Assembly: GCA_031425655.1 (NCBI GenBank)
Contig: JANPJS010000063.1
Location: 1-32,915 of the forward strand
Direction of reading: 5' to 3'
DNA: 32,915 bases
Source: Abditibacteriaceae bacterium
GTDB lineage: Bacteria; Armatimonadota; Abditibacteriia; Abditibacteriales; Abditibacteriaceae
Shown: piece after piece, positions 1,389 to 18,912 of the stretch
How the letters are laid out: each line of letters opens with the position of its first letter
How positions within the stretch are numbered: the first letter of the stretch is position 1
The notes under the pieces: generated by a model
Told to the model about the DNA's origin: nothing
The model's input: only the letters and a program-made list of their open reading frames with translations
Database searches by the model: none
Translations under genes and position numbers: made by a program

Positions 1389-4091
1389 TTATTCGGGCAA
1401 TACAACGGCGAAAGCGCTGTTATCGGTGCGCAGATATTTTTGCGCAACGCGGCGCACATCGTCAATTGAGATGGCGTTGATGCGTGCGGCGTATTCGGAG
1501 TTGTTGCGATAACCCAAACCGAAAAGCTCATCGCCGACAGCAGTTTTGGCCTGCGCAGTATTGCCCTGATTGGCAATCGCCGACGCCGAAATCGCCATGC
1601 TTTTGGCGCGCTCCAATTCCTCGGCGGAAATGTCGGCATCGCGCACTTTTTGCACTTCTTCTCCGATGATTTTCTTGACTTCTTCGGCTTTATCTTTGGT
1701 GGAGCCGGCGTAAATCACGAACATTCCAGAATTGAGGCCGGGGGAATCGTAGGCGTGAACGTAATAAACCAGTTGGTTGTCGCGCAGGCGCGCGTGCAAA
1801 CGTCCGCCCGGCAAATTGGCGCCGGAAAGCGCAGCGTCTAACACATCGATGGCGTAGCGGTCTTCGCCTTTCACGTCAATGCCGGGATAACCGTAAAAAA
1901 GCACCGCTTGCGCGAGTCCCGGTTTACGCACTTCCTGAGCGGTAAATTGCGTCAATTCACTGGCGGGCGACGGCGCTAAAAGCGGCTTGGTGCTACGATT
2001 AAAGTCCTTGAATTGCTCCTGCACAGCGCGCTTGACTTCCCCAGCGTTCACATCGCCGTAAACAGCTAAGACGACCGAGCGCGGCTGCGCGATGGAATCC
2101 CAGAACTTCGCCAAATCCTGCGCCTTGATAGTTTGAACCGACGACGAAGTGCCGAGCGGCGAGCGTCCGTAAGGATGATTTCCGAAAAATGTGCGCCGTA
2201 AAAGCAACGAACCCGCACTTTCCGGGTCGTCCGTTTGCTGTTGAATGCCCGCCAAAACCTGCTGTTTGACGCGCGTTAAATCATCGTCCTTAAACGCCGG
2301 CTGCATGATCGCTTCGGCCACGAGTTGCAGACCGGTTTTCCAATCTTTGGCCAGCCATTGCGAATCCACGCTCCACGAATTGTAGCCGCTGGAAGAGCCG
2401 AACGAGCCGCCCAACGAATCTACTAAGGTCGAGATTTCTTGATACGAGCGTTTGCGCGTGCCGCGTGAAAGCATTTCTCCGGCAAGGTTGGCAAGGCCCG
2501 GTTTGAAGCCGGGTTCCAGACGCGCGCCGCCCAAACCTTGCGCGACAATCGAAACCGCACGCGCCGCGTGATTTTCGCGGATGATCAAACGCAATCCGTT
2601 GGGCAATGTGACCAGTTCGGGTGCTTTGGCGGCGGCGCGCGGCGCGGCTTGAATGATGCTTTCGCCCTGCCCTTTCGGCACCACCAACGCCGTCGTCATG
2701 CCCTCGCGCGTGATGTAGCGCTTGGCTGCAGATTGCACTTGATCGGCGGTCACGGCTTTGATGCGCGCTACGTAAGAGCGCGAAAACGACGGGTCGCCGG
2801 TGCCAAGTTCGTCATAAGCGATTTGCTCGGCTTGCTCTTCAACGTCTTGATTACTGAAAATAAAGGCGGCTTCGATCTGGCGTTTGGCCGTAGAAAGCTC
2901 TTCAGGCGTGACCTTTTCCGTCCACAGTTTCGCGGCTTCCTTCCAGATTGCAGCGCCGGCTTTCGCCTGATTCTGCGGCGGCATTTCGGCGCGAACCGCG
3001 AAAACTCCGGCGTTGTAATTGGGCGTCGAAGACCACGCCGAAACGCTCGAAACCAAATTCTCTTTTTCGCGCAGGACGCGCACCAGACGGCTGCTGTCGC
3101 CGCCGCCGAAAATCTGTGCCAGCACGTCCAAAGCGTAAAGATCAGGATGCTGAAGAGGAATCGTATGCCAGCCCATCATCAGATAGCTCTGGCCAATCTC
3201 TTTCTCGATTACGGCGCGGCGCCGCGCGGTCTGGCGCGCTTCAGAAGAGATGGCTGGACGCTTTGGCACGCCGCGTTTCCAGCCGGCAAACAATTTTTCG
3301 GCGAGCATGACGGCCCGCATCGCGTCCACATCGCCGGCGATTGAAATCACCGTATTATTGGGCGTGTAGTGGGTTTTGTAGTAGTTAACGATGTCCTGCG
3401 GCGTCAATTTGTCGAAGGTTTCGCGGTAGCCGATGACCGGATAGCGAACCGGATGCTCCGTGAACGCGGTTTCGTAAAACGCTTTATAAAGCGTGCGATC
3501 CGGGTCGTCTTCGCCCATGTTCATTTCGTTGTGAATCACGCCCTGCTGCACACCGACTTCCTTTGCGGGAAAGGTCGCGTTTTGCAATTGATCGGAAAGT
3601 AGATCAAGCGCCCTCTCGAAATACTGGGACGCCGTCGTCATGTGATAGGCCGTCACATCGTAGGAAGTGTAAGCGTTCGACTGGCCGCCGATGGCTTGCA
3701 CTTCGTCGTCCATTTGCTGCTTGGAGCGCGTTTTGGTGCCTTCACCTAAAACGTGCTCGAAGAGGTGTGAAATCCCGGAGCCGAGGTGCTCGCCTTCGTA
3801 AATAGAGCCGGTTTTCACGTAAGCGCGCACCGCCACGACGGGCGCGGCGTGGTTTTCCAGCACTAAAAGGGTGAGTCCGTTGGGCAAAGTGCGTTTGACC
3901 GGGACGGGCACGGATTCTCTGACCGGGGCTACAAAAAGCGAGGTTTTGACTTGCGGCTTCGGCGCCGGACGCAGCGTTTTAATGTCGAGAGGCTTGACTA
4001 AATCCTGAGCCGGAGCGGGCACCGCCACAAACGAAGCGGCGACCACCGAGGTCGCCGCGAGCATCAATAAAGACGATGGGTTTTTCTGCAT
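1389..4091 (-). CDS. Secreted M16-family (pitrilysin/insulinase) zinc peptidase, single chain with two halves
   Basis: Inverted zinc motif HLFEH and NAYTS in the N-half. The second half repeats TLPNGL without the HxxEH. Signal-peptide-like N-terminus from MQKN (ATG 4091). Confidence 0.92.
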   Translation of the reverse strand: MQKNPSSLLMLAATSVVAASFVAVPAPAQDLVKPLDIKTLRPAPKPQVKTSLFVAPVRESVPVPVKRTLPNGLTLLVLENHAAPVVAVRAYVKTGSIYEGEHLGSGISHLFEHVLGEGTKTRSKQQMDDEVQAIGGQSNAYTSYDVTAYHMTTASQYFERALDLLSDQLQNATFPAKEVGVQQGVIHNEMNMGEDDPDRTLYKAFYETAFTEHPVRYPVIGYRETFDKLTPQDIVNYYKTHYTPNNTVISIAGDVDAMRAVMLAEKLFAGWKRGVPKRPAISSEARQTARRRAVIEKEIGQSYLMMGWHTIPLQHPDLYALDVLAQIFGGGDSSRLVRVLREKENLVSSVSAWSSTPNYNAGVFAVRAEMPPQNQAKAGAAIWKEAAKLWTEKVTPEELSTAKRQIEAAFIFSNQDVEEQAEQIAYDELGTGDPSFSRSYVARIKAVTADQVQSAAKRYITREGMTTALVVPKGQGESIIQAAPRAAAKAPELVTLPNGLRLIIRENHAARAVSIVAQGLGGARLEPGFKPGLANLAGEMLSRGTRKRSYQEISTLVDSLGGSFGSSSGYNSWSVDSQWLAKDWKTGLQLVAEAIMQPAFKDDDLTRVKQQVLAGIQQQTDDPESAGSLLLRRTFFGNHPYGRSPLGTSSSVQTIKAQDLAKFWDSIAQPRSVVLAVYGDVNAGEVKRAVQEQFKDFNRSTKPLLAPSPASELTQFTAQEVRKPGLAQAVLFYGYPGIDVKGEDRYAIDVLDAALSGANLPGGRLHARLRDNQLVYYVHAYDSPGLNSGMFVIYAGSTKDKAEEVKKIIGEEVQKVRDADISAEELERAKSMAISASAIANQGNTAQAKTAVGDELFGLGYRNNSEYAARINAISIDDVRRVAQKYLRTDNSAFAVVLPE

Positions 4092-4108
4092 GATGATGGA
4101 AGAACGCA

Positions 4109-5728
4109 CTATTTTCTGGCGCGCTTTAGCCACCACGCGCCGCCAACTCCGACGATAAAAGCGCTGATAAGTGCCGTCAAAATCAGCGTTGCCTGCCCGC
4201 TTTGGCCATTCGGCGCAGCGGTAGCCGAAGCATTTTCCCCAATCGCATCGAGAACCTTGAACTCAGCCTTTGGCTCGGCATACCAGAACGCCACCCAACG
4301 ATAAATTAAGTCATCCGAGTTATTAGATTTTCCATGCTCGAAGTCGAAGCGCAGCGACTTTTTGAACGGCACGGCATCGGGAATCATCAGGCGATAAGCC
4401 GACACGCCCGGTGGCATTTCGCTTTTGAAGGTCATGCCGTGATAGGGAAACGAAAACGGCTGCTTGGGAAAATACCACGCCGAGCTAAAAAAGTCTTCGG
4501 TTCCCGTGCCCTCGAACGCTTCGCCGTCGGCGGTAATCGTTTCGTTGCCTTCGAGATAAGCAAACGTGCGCCGCCGTGAATCCGGCGCCGGCACGATAGA
4601 CAAATTCAGCCCACAAAACGCGCCTTTGCCGGTCACATCCAGCATCCGCACCGGCGTTTTAAGCTGCGTTCGCGTTGCGCCATAAACGGCATGAAAACGA
4701 TAGGGCGGCGCTGTTTTCAATTGAAAACTACGGATTTTGCTCTCGAACGCAACCGGAGCGCTGCCAGTGTTGACGAAAGTAATTTTCGCGCCTTTCGAGA
4801 ACGGCATCGGCCATTTTAGCACGGCGATTTTTCCGTCGAAATCGAAGCCTGCGCTTTGCGCTTTTTTCCCGCCGTCGAACAAGCTAAGTAGCGCGGAAAC
4901 CGGCGCATCAATGGCGTTCGCCGCAGCGCCGTCCCACGCCGCGCGCATTCGCAGCGATTTCACGTCGTCGGGTTTTTGCAACGTCAATTCCAAAGTTTTA
5001 ATTTGCCCAACGCCTTTCAAATCAATGACTTTTTCGGCGCCGGGCGCCAGCAAGTTGCTTAACGATTCGCTCAGCGGCTTGGGTAAAGGCGCTGTCCATG
5101 CGGGAGGATTTGGACGAATTGTAATCTGGTAGAAGAATTTATTTTCGTCCTTGCTGACGTTGGTTACAGCCAATTGCGGCGAGTTGCCACTTAGCGTATC
5201 GGTGGGTGCGAACTGTCCGTGTTTGTATTCGCTTCGCTTCTCAATTTCTGCGGGGTCTTCCTCAGGCGGCAATAACAAAAAGGCCTTTTGGTGAATCGAG
5301 ATGTGATTGTAAACGAATGGGCCAACCGATTGTATTTTTCCGTTTCGGGCCAGCAGCCATGGGGTTCCCAAATCATCGCTCAACAAGCGGGTTTCTATCT
5401 TTTCCGGCTCCAACGCCGTCCACCAAAGTCGCTCCAAACGCCCCGATGCCAGCGGGATTTTGCGCGTTTCGCCCGGTTTCAGCAGCAGATAATCTTCGTT
5501 TTCATGCTTCGGGTCGGTCGAAGCGAACCATTTATACGGCGGCGCATCGGGCGCAGAAAGCAGCGATTCGTTGGCGGCGAAGGCTTGCTTGGCGACTAAA
5601 GTCGCGGCAACAACGCAGCAAAGCCTGCCTGCGCAGGCTGAATTTCGAGATTTAGTCGCCGAAGGGCGACTTCGCTGAGTTGTTGCCGCGACTTTAGTCG
5701 CCAGGCCGCACTTAATAAATGGTGCCAT
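4109..5728 (-). CDS. DUF2961 (GH172-like) domain protein with N-terminal signal and C-terminal membrane anchor
   Basis: EGNE...GTGTEDFFSSAWYF, SAYR...PFKKSLRFDFEHG and VAFWY motifs. C-terminal TM segment with a KRARK tail. GGAGG lies 8 nt before ATG 5728. Confidence 0.8.
   Translation of the reverse strand: MAPFIKCGLATKVAATTQRSRPSATKSRNSACAGRLCCVVAATLVAKQAFAANESLLSAPDAPPYKWFASTDPKHENEDYLLLKPGETRKIPLASGRLERLWWTALEPEKIETRLLSDDLGTPWLLARNGKIQSVGPFVYNHISIHQKAFLLLPPEEDPAEIEKRSEYKHGQFAPTDTLSGNSPQLAVTNVSKDENKFFYQITIRPNPPAWTAPLPKPLSESLSNLLAPGAEKVIDLKGVGQIKTLELTLQKPDDVKSLRMRAAWDGAAANAIDAPVSALLSLFDGGKKAQSAGFDFDGKIAVLKWPMPFSKGAKITFVNTGSAPVAFESKIRSFQLKTAPPYRFHAVYGATRTQLKTPVRMLDVTGKGAFCGLNLSIVPAPDSRRRTFAYLEGNETITADGEAFEGTGTEDFFSSAWYFPKQPFSFPYHGMTFKSEMPPGVSAYRLMIPDAVPFKKSLRFDFEHGKSNNSDDLIYRWVAFWYAEPKAEFKVLDAIGENASATAAPNGQSGQATLILTALISAFIVGVGGAWWLKRARK
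5590..5703. repeat. 114-bp palindromic element inside the 5' end of the DUF2961 ORF
   Basis: Perfect ~25-bp terminal inverted repeat TGGCGACTAAAGTCGCGGCAACAAC, with internal hairpins AGCCTGCCTGCGCAGGCT and AGTCGCCGAAGGGCGACT. Confidence 0.9.
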
Positions 5729-11643: not shown

Positions 11644-11923
11644 AAAGCGGGGCTGACGCCTCCTTCCAATCAACAACTCACGTTACGCAATTGAGATTTA
11701 AGAGCGACTTTGTCGCTCATGGAAACCCCCAACCCCCTTGGTAAGGGGGCTATATTCTTACGCTTTGGGAGAAAATAAGCTGGATTTCTCCCTCCAAGTA
11801 ACGATTTAGCCCCCTTACCAAGGGGGTTGGGGGTTTCCATGAGCGACAAAGTCGCTCTTAAATCTCAACCGCATAACATCAATCAACAACATTCGGATTG
11901 GAAAAGGGCGTCAGCCCCGCTTT
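11644..11923. repeat. Outer REP-like hairpin interrupted by MITE copy 2
   Basis: Arms AAAGCGGGGCTGACGCCTCCTTCCAATC (11644-11671) and GATTGGAAAAGGGCGTCAGCCCCGCTTT (11896-11923). Confidence 0.85.
11678..11881. mobile_element. MITE-like long palindrome, copy 2, with target-site duplication
   Basis: Long inverted arms flanked by the direct repeat ATCAACAAC (11669-11677 and 11882-11890). Homologous to 8002-8245. Confidence 0.8.
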
Positions 11924-12394: not shown

Positions 12395-12468
12395 AAACGA
12401 ACCCAGAGCGTAAGCGACGGGCTTTTCGCTAAGGTGTTAAGCCCGTCGCTTACGCTCTGGGTTCGTTT
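12395..12468. repeat. REP-like inverted repeat
   Basis: Perfect 30-bp arms AAACGAACCCAGAGCGTAAGCGACGGGCTT with a 14-nt loop. Confidence 0.9.
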
Positions 12469-12484: not shown

Positions 12485-13444
12485 TTACGGCGTGAGTTTT
12501 TTGGCGTCGGAGCCTTTTTCGTGGCCGTCGGTGGTGACGACGTAGACCTTGCCCCACACCGTCGAACCCGTCGGCAAATACTGCGCGCCGACCGTGAATT
12601 CTTGCACGTTAGGCGCTAAGTCGCCGATGGAAACTTCGCCGTCGCTTTTGTATTTCGGCCCGGCGCTGATGCGAAAGCTGTAACGCTCTAAATCGGGCGC
12701 CGTTGTGGCCGTCCATGTGGCGTGCGCGGTGTGATTGGCGGCGTCTACCGTCACGCTGAGCGCCACGGCTTCGGGCGTGGTGCCGGTGGCGCGCGGGTTG
12801 ACAGTCGGCAGGTTGAGCACGAAAGGGCTGTCGGCGGGATATTCGGCTAAAATGGCGCGGCGATATTCGGCAAAGATGTCTTTCACTTCGCGCGCTGCGT
12901 TGTCGCGCTGATCGTGGAGAATCGGCAGCGTGCCGTCTAAGGTGCCGATGGCCGTTACTTTGTCGCTGAGCGTCGAAACCAGCGTGTCGAAGGAGGCGCG
13001 CGTCCAGCCGTCGCGGGTGAGAAGCGGGTCGTCGCCGCGCGCCACATTGATGGCCTCCCAACGTGCCGAAACGCGGCCATAGACTGTCAACAGGTCGGCG
13101 TCGGCGGCTTTTTGTTGCGGGAGCGTCGGCAGGTCGGCGAGGAGCGAGTCGCCCTCCATTTGATAAAGCGCCGCTTTGCGCCACGCATCCATGCCATCGC
13201 GGGTTTGGGTGCGCAGTCCGTCGCGTTGTGCGGCTAAAACCACACGATTCTGGTCTTTGGCGTCGCTTTCGGCGATTCTGTCGTCCAAAACGGCGATTTT
13301 GGACTGGAAATCGAGCAAAGTCACGTCCGATTTGAGCACAAGGGCCGTTTTTCCGTTGGCGACGCGGTCGGCATTAACTGCCGTCCAACTGTTTACGAAC
13401 AGCGGCGCCCGCTCTTTGACCTGATTAGCCAGCACTCTTTCCAT
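12485..13444 (-). CDS. Hypothetical protein: two tandem helical repeats plus a C-terminal beta-rich (FN3-like) domain
   Basis: AAGGAG RBS, host-like codon usage and an internal duplication. C-terminal ATWTA..PDLERYS...VYVVTTDGHEKGS resembles an FN3-type beta sandwich. Confidence 0.75.
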   Translation of the reverse strand: MERVLANQVKERAPLFVNSWTAVNADRVANGKTALVLKSDVTLLDFQSKIAVLDDRIAESDAKDQNRVVLAAQRDGLRTQTRDGMDAWRKAALYQMEGDSLLADLPTLPQQKAADADLLTVYGRVSARWEAINVARGDDPLLTRDGWTRASFDTLVSTLSDKVTAIGTLDGTLPILHDQRDNAAREVKDIFAEYRRAILAEYPADSPFVLNLPTVNPRATGTTPEAVALSVTVDAANHTAHATWTATTAPDLERYSFRISAGPKYKSDGEVSIGDLAPNVQEFTVGAQYLPTGSTVWGKVYVVTTDGHEKGSDAKKLTP

Positions 13445-13546: not shown

Positions 13547-13714
13547 AATGATACTGGAATGTTTAGTCGCAATAATGCCATGTTGAGCGAGGATAATGGC
13601 AGGTTAAGCGACAGTAACACCCAGTTCAGCGAGGATAATAGCAAGTCAAGCGAGCGTAACGGCAAGTCAAGCGACAGTAACAGCAGGTCAAGCGACAAGA
13701 ATCGGAAGTTGAGC
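13547..13714. repeat. Degenerate 21-bp tandem array, 8 units
   Basis: Units such as GAGGATAATGGCAGGTTAAGC, GACAGTAACACCCAGTTCAGC, GAGCGTAACGGCAAGTCAAGC and GACAGTAACAGCAGGTCAAGC. Confidence 0.85.
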
Positions 13715-13748
13715 GACCACAGGGGCCGCCCCTACAGTTCGGCTGAGA

Positions 13749-13840
13749 CAATTGTAGCAAGCGGCGGCGGCGTTGTCAGCAAGTCGGTTTTAAGTAGCAC
13801 GCAATCGACCGCAATCCTTCCGCATAATTACGAGTTGGGC
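13749..13840 (+). repeat. Repeat A copy 1: promoter block plus attI-like simple site
   Basis: 52/57 identity (13749-13805 vs 15941-15997) and 25/28 identity (13809-13836 vs 16041-16068). Ends in GCATAAT-TACGA-GTTGGGC. Confidence 0.85.
13751..13779 (-). promoter_or_regulatory. Leftward sigma70-type promoter within repeat A1
   Basis: Bottom strand CTGACA-N17-TACAAT with a TGn extended -10. Confidence 0.65.
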
Positions 13841-13859
13841 CGGTGCGCGCAGTTTGGTT

Positions 13860-13959
13860 ACTACATCCGACCGCCGCCAGCTTGGTTCTTTGCGCGATGT
13901 TCCGGGTAAACTGTGTCCAAGTGGCGTCTGCGCGGCGGAGGGTGAGTCTGGCGTTGGGC
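13860..13959 (+). other. attC-like recombination site remnant (R'' box missing or degenerate)
   Basis: L''-like ACTACATC pairs with L'-like GGTGAGT (13941-13947), leaving one extrahelical base. Stems CCGCCGC/GCGGCGG and CTTGG/CCAAG. A 5-nt spacer then GTTGGGC (GTTRRRY) at 13953-13959. Confidence 0.6.
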
Positions 13960-14017
13960 AGTAGTAGGCCGACGGAACGGAGCAGTCACCAATTATTAAA
14001 AAGTAAAATAACCCCAC

Positions 14018-15001
14018 ATGGCTAACAAATCGCATTTCAATAGTGGCCACATAGCACTAAATCAATTGAAAAAGAATGGAGCTTCGCATAGTTCTACAAT
14101 CACTGGAATTTCAACGCCTCATACGGTTCATGGTGTCTTTATCCAAGATGCGGTTGAGTTTTTGAAGACATTGCCTGATTCATCAGTTCAGCTAATTCTA
14201 ATAGACCCGCCCTATAATCTTGATCTTGACAAGTGGGATACATTCAACAACTATCTCGATTGGGCAAAAGCATGGTTGGATGAAATTTACCGTGTGTTAT
14301 CTGATTCAGGTAACTGTGTCATTTTTGGCGGCTTCCAGTATCAGGATTTAAAGAAGGGAGACCTCCTTGAAATACTCCATTACACTCGCCATGAAACAGC
14401 TTTGCGATTTGTCAATCTTGTTATTTGGTATTACAAAAACGGTATGAGTGCGCATCGTTTTTTTGCCAACAGGCATGAAGAAGCAATTTGGCTCTCCAAA
14501 ACGAAGAAATACTATTTCGACTTGGACTCTGTTAGGGTGCCCTTTGATGAGGCGACAAAAGAGATTTACAAAAAAGATAAGCGTCTCAATCCTGAAAGCA
14601 TTGAAAAGGGGAAAAATCCTACAAATGTTTGGGAGATAGGAAGGCTAAACGGCAATTCGAGGGAGAGGGTTGGTCATTTAACGCAAAAGCCCGCCGAACT
14701 TATCCGGCGTTTTGTTAAGGCTCTGTCCTTTGAGGGTTCGATAGTCCTCGACTTTTTTGCCGGGTCTGGAACAACGGGACGTGTTTGCATAGAAGAGCGA
14801 CGGCATTCACTCTTAGTGGATTCAGATAATAAACTGCACGGTTATTTAGATGAACACATTAAGCAGATCAAATCGAATCTGTTCCTGCCTAAATACACTC
14901 TAATGACAGACTCCAACATTGATGCCGTGCTCGAAGAGATTGCTTTTGCGAATCAACAACTGCAAAAAAATCTGGTTGTAAAGGATTGTCCCAATGAGTA
15001 A
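14018..15001 (+). CDS. Beta-class N6-adenine DNA methyltransferase, M.RsrI-like
   Basis: DPPY precedes HLTQKP and LDFFAGSGTT (beta order). The N-terminus MANKSHFNSGH resembles M.RsrI as I recall it. Visibly AT-richer than the host genes. Confidence 0.9.
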   Translation: MANKSHFNSGHIALNQLKKNGASHSSTITGISTPHTVHGVFIQDAVEFLKTLPDSSVQLILIDPPYNLDLDKWDTFNNYLDWAKAWLDEIYRVLSDSGNCVIFGGFQYQDLKKGDLLEILHYTRHETALRFVNLVIWYYKNGMSAHRFFANRHEEAIWLSKTKKYYFDLDSVRVPFDEATKEIYKKDKRLNPESIEKGKNPTNVWEIGRLNGNSRERVGHLTQKPAELIRRFVKALSFEGSIVLDFFAGSGTTGRVCIEERRHSLLVDSDNKLHGYLDEHIKQIKSNLFLPKYTLMTDSNIDAVLEEIAFANQQLQKNLVVKDCPNE

Positions 15002-15797
15002 AAGACAAACAGGACGGCTAACCAACCAGCATATATCATCGGGAGGCGCTAGCGGTATCTTTGGCGCAGATGCTCAGGCGCATGACAAGTTTGTCGGTCG
15101 TGCAAGTTTGAACGTATTCGAGAAGCTTAAGCAACAATATCCGAGATACCAATTTAGATTTAGAACATCGCTCAGCAAACAGGAGATAAATGAAAAGCTA
15201 AACTCAATTGATAAGCGATTGGGAGAAACTCTTTTCGTAAAAATTTCAAGTATCAAACCTGATGGAGGAATTATCGAGGTTCAGGACAAAGATAATAAAT
15301 GGCGGGTAGTTTTAGTTAGCGAAGCAAAGTTTCAGGGGAAAGATATTGAAAACATTACAGCAGGGACACTTGTTGGGAAGAACAAAGATCAAGTGTTCAT
15401 GGCAGCGGGGAATGCAATCGAAAGAGTTTACAAAAACATTAATGAAATTAGGAATTTCATGCTGGACGAAAATCATTTCCCGTATGCAGTATTTTTGCAA
15501 GGCTCGAACTTTGCCACTGAAGTTGTTCAGGTGTTCAAACCCGACGGTTCTTTTGTGGAAATTAGACATGACTCAGGTTTATTGAACAGAATTGATAGAG
15601 TAACGGCGGCGAATTATTGCATGAAGATTAACAGCAATTACTGTAAAAATATGTTCATAGCTCACAGTAACTCGTCCATCATGCTTCAAGCAGCTTCCAT
15701 ATACGCAAGATGCGAACTTTGGAAAGAAGATGAAATGGAACAGATTATGATGGATATTGCAAATACATCCATAGGGATTTTAAATCAGTTGGGGTAA
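14994..15797 (+). CDS. EcoRI/RsrI-family type II restriction endonuclease (predicted target GAATTC)
   Basis: IKPDGGIIEV...VVLVSEAK (PD...EAK), MAAGNAIER and HFPYAVFLQGSNF match EcoRI. 8-bp overlap with the MTase gene. Confidence 0.93.
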   Translation: MSKRQTGRLTNQHISSGGASGIFGADAQAHDKFVGRASLNVFEKLKQQYPRYQFRFRTSLSKQEINEKLNSIDKRLGETLFVKISSIKPDGGIIEVQDKDNKWRVVLVSEAKFQGKDIENITAGTLVGKNKDQVFMAAGNAIERVYKNINEIRNFMLDENHFPYAVFLQGSNFATEVVQVFKPDGSFVEIRHDSGLLNRIDRVTAANYCMKINSNYCKNMFIAHSNSSIMLQAASIYARCELWKEDEMEQIMMDIANTSIGILNQLG

Positions 15798-15798
15798 C

Positions 15799-15836
15799 AC
15801 AAGAGATTCTTTTGGCAATGGGTAAAACGACCTCTT
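15799..15836 (+). repeat. Repeat B copy 1
   Basis: ACAAGAGATTCTTTTGGCAATGGGTAAAACGACCTCTT, 34/38 identical to 16700-16737. Both copies are followed by a T-run and GCCTCTCC. Confidence 0.85.
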
Positions 15837-15854
15837 TTTTGCCTCTCCTTTTAG

Positions 15855-15886
15855 GCGCGCTTCTCCGGCGAGAAGCGCGCTTTTTT
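15855..15886 (+). terminator. Rho-independent terminator after the R-M operon
   Basis: GCGCGCTTCTC-cggc-GAGAAGCGCGC-TTTTTT. Confidence 0.85.
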
Positions 15887-15940: not shown

Positions 15941-16072
15941 CAATCGTAGCAAGCGACGGCGGCGTTGTCAGCAAGGCGGTTCTCAGTAGCACGCAATTTT
16001 AGTGATCCAGATTCCATCATACAAGCGATCAAGCGATTATCCGCAATCCTTCCGCATAACTACTTGTTCTGT
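15941..16072 (+). repeat. Repeat A copy 2: promoter block plus attI-like simple site
   Basis: Same two blocks as A1, separated by an extra ~40 bp. Ends in GCATAAC-TACTT-GTTCTGT. Bottom strand CTGACA-N17-TACGAT. Confidence 0.85.
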
Positions 16073-16139
16073 CGATTGTGCGTGGCGCTTCTGAAATTGG
16101 AAGTGCAAAAAGATAAAATAGAAGGCGAAGAGGTGCGAT

Positions 16140-16355
16140 ATGCAAGCTCAAGAATTAATTATTTCTTCGCCAGATGTTTTGGGTGGCACGCCAGTTTTCA
16201 TTGGCACTCGCGTTCCGGTCAAGAATTTGACGGATTACATTGAGGCTGGAGATACACTGGATGAGTTTTTGGATGATTTTCCTTCGGTGTCGCGGGAACA
16301 AGCGGTCGAGTTTATAGAACAGGCGAAGGAGGCTTTGCTTGCTCAACTCGCCTAA
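16140..16355 (+). CDS. DUF433 antitoxin
   Basis: IISSPDVLGGTPVFIGTRVPV...GDTLDEFLDDFPSVSREQ. Confidence 0.92.
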   Translation: MQAQELIISSPDVLGGTPVFIGTRVPVKNLTDYIEAGDTLDEFLDDFPSVSREQAVEFIEQAKEALLAQLA

Positions 16356-16689
16356 TCCGCTTCGTGTTTTATTAGATGAGTGCCTGCCCAAGAAGCTCAA
16401 ACGTGAATTTACAAACTGCATGGTTTCCACCGTTGCTGAAATAGGCTGGGCAGGCAAGAAGAACGGTGAGTTGATGAAAGTCGCTCACGGCCACTTCGAT
16501 GTATTCGTCACGGCTGACCAGAATTTGCAATATCAGCAGAATTTGGCTTATGCGGACATTGGCGTTGTGGTTCTCGTCGCAATCAACAATCGTATTGAAA
16601 CGCTTGCGCCGCTCATGCCGCAGGTTAATGAAGCACTCAAAAGCATCGCAGCCGGTCAGGTTATCGAAATCGAGGCCGCAACCGATTAA
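16339..16689 (+). CDS. DUF5615 PIN-like toxin
   Basis: RVLLDECLP...GWAGKKNGEL...FDVFVTADQNLQYQQNL. TTG start with AAGGAGG 6 nt upstream, overlapping the antitoxin. Confidence 0.9.
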   Translation: MLNSPNPLRVLLDECLPKKLKREFTNCMVSTVAEIGWAGKKNGELMKVAHGHFDVFVTADQNLQYQQNLAYADIGVVVLVAINNRIETLAPLMPQVNEALKSIAAGQVIEIEAATD

Positions 16690-16699
16690 CAGCCACACA

Positions 16700-16737
16700 A
16701 CAAGAGACTCTGTTGACAAGGGGTAAAACGACCTCTT
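16700..16737 (+). repeat. Repeat B copy 2
   Basis: ACAAGAGACTCTGTTGACAAGGGGTAAAACGACCTCTT. ACAAGAG and CTCTTGT close a short hairpin. Confidence 0.85.
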
Positions 16738-16822
16738 GTCTTTTTTATTTTTCGCCTCTCCCTTCAGTCTGCTTCAAACTCCCAATCGGCCACTTGGCGG
16801 ACTCATTCTGCGCGCCGCATAG

Positions 16823-16831: not shown

Positions 16832-16863
16832 GCCTTTTAATTCCCCGATTTTTGGAGGTTGAG

Positions 16864-18912
16864 ATGAAAGAATATGCTCCTGAAGCGATCAGGAACGTGG
16901 CTTTCGCCTCGCATAGCGGTTCCGGCAAGACCAGTCTTGCGGAAGCCTGCCTGTATCTTGCGGGAGCGACCGACCGGCTGGGCAAAGTGGACGACGGCAA
17001 CGCCGTCAGCGATTATCTGCCCGAAGAAATCAAGCGCCGCAGCTCGATTTGGACGGGTGTGATGGCCTTCGAGCACGAAAAGCTGAAAATCAACCTGCTC
17101 GACACGCCCGGATATGCCGACTTCTTCGGCGAGGTGGTGTCAGCGCTCAACGCCGTCGAAAATGTCGTGCTTGTGGCCAACGCCACGCATCCGGTTGAAT
17201 TTGGGTTGGAACACGCCGCGCAACACGCCATGTCTCACGGACTGGCGTGTTTTGTTTTTATCAACGAACTGGATAAAGAGCGCGCCAACTACGACGTAAC
17301 CTTCGACGCCCTGCACGACCGGATGCACCTGCCCGTCGTCGCGCTGACTTATCCACTGGGACAGGAAAGCAGTTTGCGCGGCTGGATTGATGTCATCGAG
17401 GGCAAAGCCTACGAAGACGCAGCGGGCAAACTCAGCGAAGTGCCGATTCCCGACGGATGCAGGGCGCGCGTTGAAGAATTGCACTCGCAGTTGGTCGAGG
17501 CCATCGTCGAAGTGGACGACGCCGCGATGGAAAAGTATCTCGATGGCGGCCAGCTTTCGCGCGACGAGATTATTCCGCTGATTCGCCAGTGCATCTCGTC
17601 GGGGCGCATCGCGCCCGTTCTGTGCGGCAGCGCCACGAAATTGCTTGGCGTGCGCCGATTGCTCGATCAACTCGTGCTGTGCGCGGTGCCGCCGCAAGCC
17701 AAACAAGACGTAGCGGCAGATGCCAACGCACCCTTCGCGGGCTTCGTGGTGAAAACTTTTTCCGACCCGCACACAGGCCGCGCGACGTTTCTTAAAATCG
17801 TGCGCGGCACGCTGGGGCGCGAGTCCGAGATTATCAATCTCAGCAACGGTTCGCACGAGAAAATCGCGCACCTTTACGCGCCGCTGGGCAAAAAAAGCGC
17901 TGAAGTGTCGCAAATGTGCGCGGGCGACATCGCTTTAGTTTTGAAATTGAAAAACACGCACACCAACGACAGTTTGGGCGCCTCGTCCGACAGTCCGCGC
18001 TTCGCCAAACCCGATTATCCTCAATCGCTTTACGCCCTCGCCTTAGATCCGGCCACGCGCGGCGATGACGACAAAATGAACGAGGCCTTAGCACGCTTGT
18101 TGGACGAAGACCCATCGTTCCACGTTGTTCGCAACGCGGAAACCCATCAAACGGTGGCTTACGGATTGGGCGATGTGCATTTGCAAACCCTGATTTCGCG
18201 TTTGCAGAGCGCGTTCGGTGTGAAAATCAACGTCAGCCAGCCGCGCATCGCGTATCACGAAACAATTCGCAAAGCCGTCAAAGTTGAAGGCAAATTGAAA
18301 AAGCAGTCGGGCGGGCACGGGCAATTTGCCGATGTGTGGCTGGAAGTCGAGCCGAACGCGCCGGGCGCTGGCTTTGAGTTCGTGGATAAAATCGTCGGCG
18401 GCGTCGTTCCGCGCGCTTTTATTCCCGCCGTCGAGGAAGGCGTGCGCGACGCATTAAAAGAAGGCCCGTTGGCCGGCTGTCCGCTCGTGGACGTGAAAGT
18501 GACGCTCTACGACGGCAAGTTTCACGATGTGGATTCGTCGTATCAGACCTTCAAGCAGGCGGGTTCCTATGGCTTACGCAGCGGCGCCAAGGAAGCCGCG
18601 CCGGTTTTGCTTGAACCCGTGATGAACGTCACGGTTGTTGCGCCCGAAGGCGGCGCGGGCGATGTTGTCGGCGATCTCAATGGCAGGCGCGGCCAGATTC
18701 TCGGTATGGAGCCAACCGGCGATGGCACCGTAAAAATCAACGCCTTAGTGCCCGACGCCTCGCTGATGCAATATCCGATCACGCTGCGTTCGCTCACACA
18801 CGGCGAAGGCCAATTCACCAAGCAATTCGCGCATTATGCGCCGGTTCCCGATCACGCGGCGAAACCATTGATTGAGGAATACCAAAAGCGCCGCGAAGCG
18901 AACGGGCACTGA
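16864..18912 (+). CDS. fusA2: Elongation factor G paralog (EF-G2/EF-G-like)
   Basis: IRNVA..SHSGSGKTSL, DTPGYADF, GLGDVHL, KKQSGGHGQFA, DGKFHDVDSS and LLEPVM. Stand-alone gene with degenerate G motifs relative to canonical FusA. Confidence 0.88.
   Translation: MKEYAPEAIRNVAFASHSGSGKTSLAEACLYLAGATDRLGKVDDGNAVSDYLPEEIKRRSSIWTGVMAFEHEKLKINLLDTPGYADFFGEVVSALNAVENVVLVANATHPVEFGLEHAAQHAMSHGLACFVFINELDKERANYDVTFDALHDRMHLPVVALTYPLGQESSLRGWIDVIEGKAYEDAAGKLSEVPIPDGCRARVEELHSQLVEAIVEVDDAAMEKYLDGGQLSRDEIIPLIRQCISSGRIAPVLCGSATKLLGVRRLLDQLVLCAVPPQAKQDVAADANAPFAGFVVKTFSDPHTGRATFLKIVRGTLGRESEIINLSNGSHEKIAHLYAPLGKKSAEVSQMCAGDIALVLKLKNTHTNDSLGASSDSPRFAKPDYPQSLYALALDPATRGDDDKMNEALARLLDEDPSFHVVRNAETHQTVAYGLGDVHLQTLISRLQSAFGVKINVSQPRIAYHETIRKAVKVEGKLKKQSGGHGQFADVWLEVEPNAPGAGFEFVDKIVGGVVPRAFIPAVEEGVRDALKEGPLAGCPLVDVKVTLYDGKFHDVDSSYQTFKQAGSYGLRSGAKEAAPVLLEPVMNVTVVAPEGGAGDVVGDLNGRRGQILGMEPTGDGTVKINALVPDASLMQYPITLRSLTHGEGQFTKQFAHYAPVPDHAAKPLIEEYQKRREANGH

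Follow-up and report, generated by a model that had tools for sequence, protein, structure and literature searches.

A restriction-modification (R-M) gene pair in the window, i. e. the whole stretch of 32,915 nt that was analysed, stands behind the leftover of an integron recombination site. We consider it probable that this truncated attC and the RsrI/EcoRI-like methyltransferase (M) and endonuclease (R) genes form one fused cassette, which was likely captured by an integron integrase (IntI) at an attI-like site, A1; this degree of confidence applies to the scenario as a whole. It provides a boundary-exact worked example of an R-M system travelling as an integron cassette between very distant bacteria. 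Defence cassettes, toxin-antitoxin (TA) cassettes and insertion sequences (IS) that target attC are already known biology. The setting described here is decayed and has no integrase, yet its integron biology is ordinary; the RsrI/EcoRI-type cassette, with its spread across phyla, is a new instance of it.

The features of the region are listed below with their positions in the window and their strand. L, C and G numbers are our handles for loci, contigs and genomes (G000 is the genome of the window), and a slash, as in G/TT, marks a cassette junction.

12485..13444, minus; ORF of 319 aa, where intI would be expected, but a flanking host gene and not an integrase, no Pfam family, 55%-identical homologue in the relative G001
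13749..13833, plus; A1, attI-like head copy 1, direct repeat of 15941-16065, junction G/TT at 13834/13835
13834..13863, plus; putative start of a first, native-type cassette, remainder deleted; core GTTGGGC, then cassette-start motif CGGTGCGCGCAGTTTGG; shared with L122 from G/TT onward
13864..13959, plus; 5'-truncated (dead) attC, by covariance model, nhmmer, fold and the same remnant in L122 and L124
13953..15806, plus; R-M cassette proper, homologous to L106 and L116 from 13953 as far as 15804-15806
14018..15001, plus; DNA methyltransferase, M.RsrI-like (N6_N4_Mtase); PF01555 6e-53, PDB M.RsrI 1eg2 2e-101
14994..15797, plus; restriction endonuclease, EcoRI family; PF02963 9e-131, PDB EcoRI 1ckq 1.9e-91
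15799..15854, plus; B1, diverged terminal remnant of an attC-targeting IS110-family element; 89% to B2 over 38 nt, 17 nt identical to the IS
15853..15882, plus; between the modules, strong terminator-like hairpin with a 13-bp stem and a T run behind it
15941..16065, plus; A2, second copy of the attI-like head, exceeding A1 by about 40 nt, direct repeat, junction G/TT at 16066/16067
16066..16704, plus; TA cassette; DUF433 at 16140-16355, DUF5615/PIN-like at 16339-16689 (Pfam), R'' ACACAAC at 16695-16701
16705..16754, plus; B2, first ~51 nt of an IS110-family element, hairpin and T run, 96% to IS nt 1-51
16715-16740; terminator-like site within B2
16852..18912, plus; EF-G-like GTPase gene (Pfam), right-hand host flank, 72-74% nucleotide identity in three relatives

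The attC remnant and the attC family of the genome

The initial annotation had described a hairpin with a bulged base and a terminal GTTGGGC located 58 nt upstream of the methyltransferase ATG. Inspection of the sequence, folding and a covariance model bear this out. The R' box GTTGGGC occupies 13953-13959 and the methylase ATG is at 14018, with a gap of 58 nt; the hairpin is GC-rich and imperfect and spans approximately 13868-13945. A second GTTGGGC is present at 13834-13840, 24 nt before 13860. The R'' box (RYYYAAC), which had been reported as absent, is indeed missing: between 13834 and 13875 inspection revealed no RYYYAAC and not even an AAC.

Weak BLAST matches of the region, to sites that end in GGGTGAGCTTGGTCGTTRRRY, led to a large and homogeneous attC family of this genome. 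A strict regular expression recovered 27 full sites; an earlier, loose expression for the attC end was dropped with its more than 1000 chance matches. With an HMM of the regex sites and a limit of E<=10, nhmmer gave 82 matches spread over 40 contigs; a count of the table put 54 of these at E<=1e-5. Across the arrays of this genome, every R'' is the reverse complement of the R' before it, on C211 for example GTTCTGC and GCAGAAC, GTTAGGC and GCCTAAC, GTTGGGC and GCCCAAC, and thus the cassettes are real. In 23 of 34 attC-type regex sites R' is followed by a conserved motif, nnnnGCGCGC(A/G)GC(T/G)T, for example at C103:6724-6745. Since this motif is kept behind R', the conserved recombination site would extend into the next cassette by about 17 nt, a feature uncommon among attC descriptions.

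A covariance model was built from 25 sites of this genome, with the window copy excluded from training, and run against the window with the filters off. It matched 13847-13959 on the plus strand (26.8 bits, E 2e-05), and no other significant attC match was found in the 33-kb window, where the runner-up had an E of 0.57. The suggested check by an attC model thus gave a score, with the model being that of the genome's own sites. The score lies below the range of intact attCs of the same genome (55.9-115.2 bits). The first ~17 positions of the model (the R'' AAC and AAGGCGCTGCAC) are unmatched in the remnant, which has unrelated sequence there, the AAC of the model being aligned to AGU. The R' of the model is aligned to GTTGGGC, so that the R' core GTTRRRY is present at the 3' end. 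The L''/L' stem with its extrahelical bases is present as well, with CCGACCGCC and GGCGGAGGG aligning to model pairs. With nhmmer the remnant matched at 13861-13954, corresponding to HMM positions 14-97 of 101; genome-wide this match was weak (15.2 bits, E 0.078).

The bottom strand was folded as well, another of the suggested checks. It keeps the L-box hairpin and offers R' no partner: a stem CCGCCGC/GCGGCGG with a bulge is formed and the R box GCCCAAC is unpaired. The folding energy of the remnant does not stand out from that of shuffled sequences (z -0.45), nor does that of an intact attC of the same genome (z -0.37), and for this reason folding energy does not discriminate here. No T run follows the hairpin, and no further copy of it was found in the genome. 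Taken as a sequence match, these results confirm 13864-13959 as an attC of the genome's own family without its 5' end. It resembles the attC sites of integrons, among them sedentary chromosomal integrons and CALIN/SALIN elements, in R' (GTTRRRY) and in the L-box stem with bulges; in contrast to them it has no R'', cannot form an R box and has no adjacent integrase. With just one partial attC, the window would not qualify as an attC cluster. Single partial attCs outside recognisable integrons can be read as footprints of cassette traffic.

The only integron integrase of the genome that scored over the cut-off is encoded on C103 (4883-5809; TIGR02249, 428 bits against a cut-off of 265). It has the domains Phage_integrase and SAM_4, and attI and four attCs stand behind the gene. 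A complete integron has intI adjoining attI and cassettes; here intI is on a contig other than that of the window. Neither Pfam nor tblastn with the genome's IntI (best E 0.16, at a place other than the 319-aa ORF) revealed a tyrosine recombinase or intI gene or remnant in the window, and capture at A1 hence needs either IntI acting in trans or an intI that has been lost. The 319-aa ORF was considered as a hidden integrase and rejected, as it has no Pfam match and no similarity to IntI and is unlike the ORF upstream of the attI-like head in the relative G002. Three relatives have one intact integron integrase each (G003:C8:1705667-1706601, which is L134; G002:C218; G001:C364) in addition to broken copies; in G003 the broken intI consists of three frame-shifted pieces. 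Integron platforms multiply and decay in this genus.

The R-M cassette and the fused unit in other genomes

Both genes of the R-M pair are full length, with alignments to solved relatives covering residues 2-264 of 267 for R and 1-281 of 327 for M. They overlap by 8 nt, and the pair is predicted to be specific for GAATTC. The R-M cassette has a GC content of 40.8%, compared with 56.7% for the genome, and a sample of 400 other genomes of the phylum yielded no R homologue of more than 42% identity; the GC contrast and the lack of a close R in this sample support a foreign origin of the pair. GAATTC has an observed/expected ratio (O/E) of 0.75 in the genome (2032 sites), other 6-bp palindromes range from 0.03 to 0.38. 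This pattern is consistent with a recent arrival of a GAATTC-type system and long exposure to others. The avoided palindromes include GTCGAC and GAGCTC (both O/E 0.03), TTCGAA (0.07) and CTGCAG (0.13).

A collection of species-representative genomes yielded 18 loci, belonging to many phyla, whose R is 60-92% identical at the amino acid level. In nucleotides, the R-M pair is 74-91% identical to that of MAGs labelled as Acidobacteriota, Nitrospirota, Nitrospinota, Chloroflexota, Bacteroidota, Ignavibacteriales, Bdellovibrionota, Verrucomicrobiota, Planctomycetota, Burkholderiales and Cyanobacteria. In blastn alignments with L106 and L116 the homology begins exactly at 13953, the G of GTTGGGC, and ends a few bases after the R stop. 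In eight of the 15 loci with enough flanking sequence, GTTGGGC precedes the M ATG by no more than 200 nt, and the other seven lack it; its offset is -65 or -66 in four of those eight loci and -65 in the window. GCCCAAC follows within 300 nt of the R stop in half of the loci (nine of 18; absent from nine), and five loci have both GTTGGGC upstream and GCCCAAC downstream. As seven loci do without GTTGGGC and nine without GCCCAAC, the R-M pair also occurs where cassette boundaries cannot be recognised.

The attC model, made for the family of the window genome, nonetheless matched downstream of R in L106, L112, L115 and L124. A search for the same pair in attC arrays of other genomes, which had been proposed as a further check, was successful: in L124 the pair is followed by an intact attC and then by the next cassette, and L106 has two attC matches. 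At the level of sequence this demonstrates that the RsrI/EcoRI-like pair is a genuine integron cassette in other genomes. The proposal that the R-M system of the window arrived as an integron cassette is thereby supported, the same pair being found within cassette boundaries elsewhere.

R-M systems have been described as cassettes before. Section 9 of PMC10661359 mentions the XbaI system and an enrichment of R-M in cassette metagenomes, and a passage of bioRxiv 10.1101/2024.07.02.601686 reports that type II/IV R-M systems are prevalent in sedentary chromosomal integrons. Like these, the cassette of the window is a compact two-gene type II system between core sites. It differs from them in being an RsrI/EcoRI-type pair and in having lost its own attC. 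None of the literature searched, in a search that was not aimed at this enzyme type, showed an RsrI/EcoRI-type pair as a cassette.

Two further sequences include the remnant in front of the pair. L122, the chromosome of a cyanobacterial MAG (CP089922.1), shares window positions 13818-15475 at 91%, with the truncated attC and the preceding cassette start included. There, the unit (2839-4482) is located downstream of a superoxide-dismutase-like gene, behind an attI-like sequence ending in GTATAAATGCTAG/TTAGAC, and starts with GTT (GTTAGAC); no integrase was found in the 8.5 kb examined around it. In L122 an IS1-type element truncates R at residue ~159, so that the methylase there is an orphan. 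L124, a metagenome contig, was found by a pattern spanning the junction of remnant and R' and shares 13864-15801 at 91.7%. Its intact attC, about 110 nt after the R stop, scores 94.1 bits and is of the same family as the attCs of the window genome; it stands outside the training set. The R'' of the next cassette (AGCTAAC) matches the preceding R' (GTTAGCT). The remnant itself scores 21.9 bits in L124 and in L122 falls short of E 0.01.

A five-way alignment has nested limits: all five sequences align from GTTGGGC onward, three from GACCGCCGCC and two from the first G/TT. The window, L122 and L124 have a common breakpoint, between AT(C/T)C and GACCGCCGCC, and the same 58-nt leader. This argues that remnant and R-M pair are one fused cassette, which formed once. 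Fused cassettes are known from class 1 integrons. When an attC is partly lost, two cassettes become joined as a single unit, and the remnant would be welded to the R-M cassette in this way. Upstream of the remnant L124 is unrelated to the window, and it is therefore L122 only that fixes where the fused unit starts at its 5' side (13834 or ~13864). The leftover carries the cassette-start motif of the genome's attC family (the motif found in 23 of 34 sites), and thus the fused unit is likely to have formed in a lineage using this family. The 3' UTR and attC of L124 (R'' GCACAAC) differ from the versions in other phyla; either version may have entered the window genome.

These comparisons modify one point of the initial annotation, in which the dead attC was explained by an almost complete deletion of a first cassette. 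The leftover at 13834-13863 and the truncated attC agree with that, while the same breakpoint in L122 and L124 speaks against a deletion at the window locus.

The attI-like heads, the IS tips and the lost downstream attC

The fused unit is preceded by A1, and the TA cassette by A2. The two heads are 91% identical over 57 nt and in addition share CCGCAATCCTTCCGCATAA; the sequences to their left are unrelated. The last ~20 nt of A1, CCGCATAATTACGAG/TTGGGC, resemble the attI beside intI on C103, GCGGTATAATTCAGAG/TTGGGC. Both heads end in CCGCATAA(T/C)TAC..G/TT, like the attI beside intI in the relative G002. This relative also has two copies of a 120-nt attI-like head with different cassettes after G/TT, and their ends resemble those of A1 and A2. 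Two different cassettes are joined to the repeat at the same G/TT, as would be expected of an attI. The likeness to the attI sites of C103 and G002 and the exact G/TT junctions support the earlier suggestion of an attI-like GTT shortly before the hairpin, and A1 and A2 as attI-like sites.

With the attI of integron platforms, A1 and A2 share the end ..CATAA(T/C)TAC..G/TT and the exact joining of cassettes. They differ in having no adjacent intI, in forming a tandem pair and in that their likeness to true attI does not go beyond ~20 nt. A simple integron would not have attI-like heads in tandem; plain candidates for their origin are a duplication or recombination between IS remnants. A reading of this repeat as a degenerate attC was rejected, as it has neither an inverted repeat nor an R''. 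Other attI-like heads without intI (C100:22330-22356 and C131:1308-1332, i. e. L075 and L076), ending in CATAATTCAGAG/TTGGGC, start cassette arrays elsewhere in the genome; they adjoin a histidine kinase gene and a TPR gene.

The boundaries of the TA cassette are given by a second copy on C314, which stands between two intact attCs. The homology extends exactly from GTTCTGTCG (GTTCTGT) to ACACAACAAG, that is from cassette start to R''. The mean column identity is 83% over the whole alignment with its unrelated flanks included, and approximately 88-90% by eye within the cassette. B2 cuts the attC of this cassette after AACAAG, which is the usual position of the IS.

The element in question is 1259 bp long and has the domains DEDD_Tnp_IS110 (PF01548) and Transposase_20 (PF02371); a full copy is present on C54. 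On C54, C283/C143 and C103/C284 it is inserted in attCs between AACAAG and GCGCTGCAC. Repeat B was also considered as a second, short type of attC. This was rejected, as the attCs on C54 and C283 are split exactly around B and the transposase gene. According to PMC11187229, IS1111-family elements such as ISKpn4 and ISPst6 insert at one end of attCs as their target. The IS of the window genome is like this IS1111-attC group in having a DEDD transposase and one fixed spot near the R'' end of attC. It differs in the longer non-coding region being upstream of tnp (~175 nt, against ~60 nt downstream), an arrangement that PMC11187229 associates with the IS110 type rather than with IS1111. The copy in L071 (2378-3636; G000 C54:37877-39135) thus has an IS110-type layout, yet the target habit of the IS1111-attC group.

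A complete IS has a transposase and both ends; of this, B1 and B2 represent the tip only, 40-51 nt, twice. The window was searched for a further part or a second end of the IS with regard to a composite mobilisable unit, and none was found. Truncated copies are common in the genome (C193, C172), and a solo IS tip also ends an array in G002.

For the R-M cassette, the initial annotation had noted that a downstream attC cannot be recognised. The search with the attC model, filters off, agrees with this: there is no attC downstream of the pair anywhere in the window. The GCCCAAC expected after R from the cassette start is absent from the window too, and for this reason the 3' boundary of the R-M cassette is taken from other genomes. 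Instead, the cassette gives way at its 3' end to B1, the ~40-55 terminal nt of an IS110-family element, which stands where the attC of the cassette would be expected. In other genomes this place is taken by ~20-55 nt followed by GCCCAAC and attC. The junction lies inside ACAAGAGA (15799-15806), which is also native to the 3' UTR of the cassette elsewhere (L108). It could have arisen either by landing of the IS or by a deletion from the UTR into an IS-interrupted attC. In both cases the loss of the 3' attC appears tied to an attC-homing IS.

History of the locus, rival readings and flanks

The scenario that we favour would proceed as follows. From an older native cassette the body and the 5' part of the attC were deleted, by which its leftover was welded to an incoming R-M cassette; this would have happened in a lineage using the attC family of the window genome. 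The fused unit could then move by means of the R-M cassette's own 3' attC. IntI acting in trans, from the only intI on C103, would have inserted it at A1 with the junction 13834/13835. Later the 3' attC would have been lost, either by insertion of the attC-targeting IS and a deletion, or by a deletion ending in an IS copy, leaving the tip B1. As the attC before the R-M cassette is dead and none follows it, excision by IntI should no longer be possible. The cassette is now probably stuck, its own downstream site being gone. As an addictive module the R-M system would resist loss, as would the neighbouring TA cassette. If so, the locus illustrates a route to cassette fixation, in which fusion removes one attC and an attC-homing IS destroys the other.

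The strongest competitor concerns the assembly of the locus. The module consisting of A1, fused cassette, B1 and spacer could have been set beside the module of A2, TA cassette and B2 by ordinary rearrangement rather than by IntI. Possible routes are a tandem duplication of head, cassette and IS tip with exchange of the cassette, a single crossover of a circular fragment in A, or recombination between IS copies. The arrangement invites such a reading, as A1/A2 (91%) and B1/B2 (89%) bracket both modules in the same order. Truncated IS copies as on C193 and C172, the broken intI copies of the relatives, which suggest that platforms decay and duplicate in the genus, and the two 120-nt heads of G002 point in the same direction. 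However, both junctions are exactly G/TT with unrelated cassettes, which is what site-specific capture gives and duplication alone does not. Moreover, the window has no second IS end, and the sequences to the left of A1 and A2 are unrelated. We regard assembly by rearrangement as unlikely, yet as an explanation to be reckoned with. A more far-reaching reading is that attI-like head, one cassette and IS110-family tip are no debris and form a repeatable module, with an RNA-guided attC-homing IS110 recombinase making or moving integrase-less mini-platforms. It would explain the tandem modules here as well as the extra heads without intI in the genome and in the relative; we offer it as speculation with a small chance of being correct.

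The two other readings concern the remnant, and we find them still less plausible than assembly by rearrangement. If the first cassette had been deleted in place, in the window genome and after the array had formed, a local origin would be conceivable, as both the cassette-start motif and the attC type of the remnant are native to this genome. Yet the same breakpoint and 58-nt leader occur in a cyanobacterial chromosome and in a metagenome contig, and independent identical deletions are unlikely, so that we consider this course of events very improbable. The copies in L122 and L124 could also descend from the window lineage, in which case this reading and that of a fused cassette would merge. 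We give hardly any credence to the idea that the hairpin has nothing to do with integrons, but is a terminator, a REP-like element or a regulatory element of the R-M operon, and that the R-M pair came otherwise. Such a hairpin would be in keeping with a folding energy no better than that of shuffles, with a genome rich in palindromic repeats and, of little weight, with the lack of an Rfam match. It would leave unexplained why the site matches the genome's attC model specifically, as the sole one in 33 kb, and ends in GTTGGGC exactly where the cross-phylum R-M homology begins; a T run behind the hairpin or another copy in the genome is also missing. As to Rfam, a search of the whole window at gathering thresholds gave no match; since this includes the lack of any attC match in the window, the result says little.

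In three relatives of the same genus the upstream neighbours of the EF-G gene differ from those in the window, so that they provide no empty site for comparison with the fused cassette at A1. A promoter scan gave 6 sites, no excess over shuffled sequences with 5.6; a leftward promoter-like site in both copies of A is thus of little weight.

Between the 319-aa ORF and A1, at 13551-13718, there are six to eight tandem units of 21 nt (consensus approximately GCAAGTCAAGCGACAGTAACA), located inside a probably spurious ORF of 140 aa. No copies of this repeat were found elsewhere in the genome or in 40 relatives; candidate readings are binding sites or a decayed coding repeat. Two palindromic elements are located further to the left, at 11682-11877 (93-nt arms, 88%) and at 12395-12468 (30-nt perfect arms). 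Dozens of dispersed copies of these elements occur in all three genomes of the same genus, and they look MITE- or REP-like.
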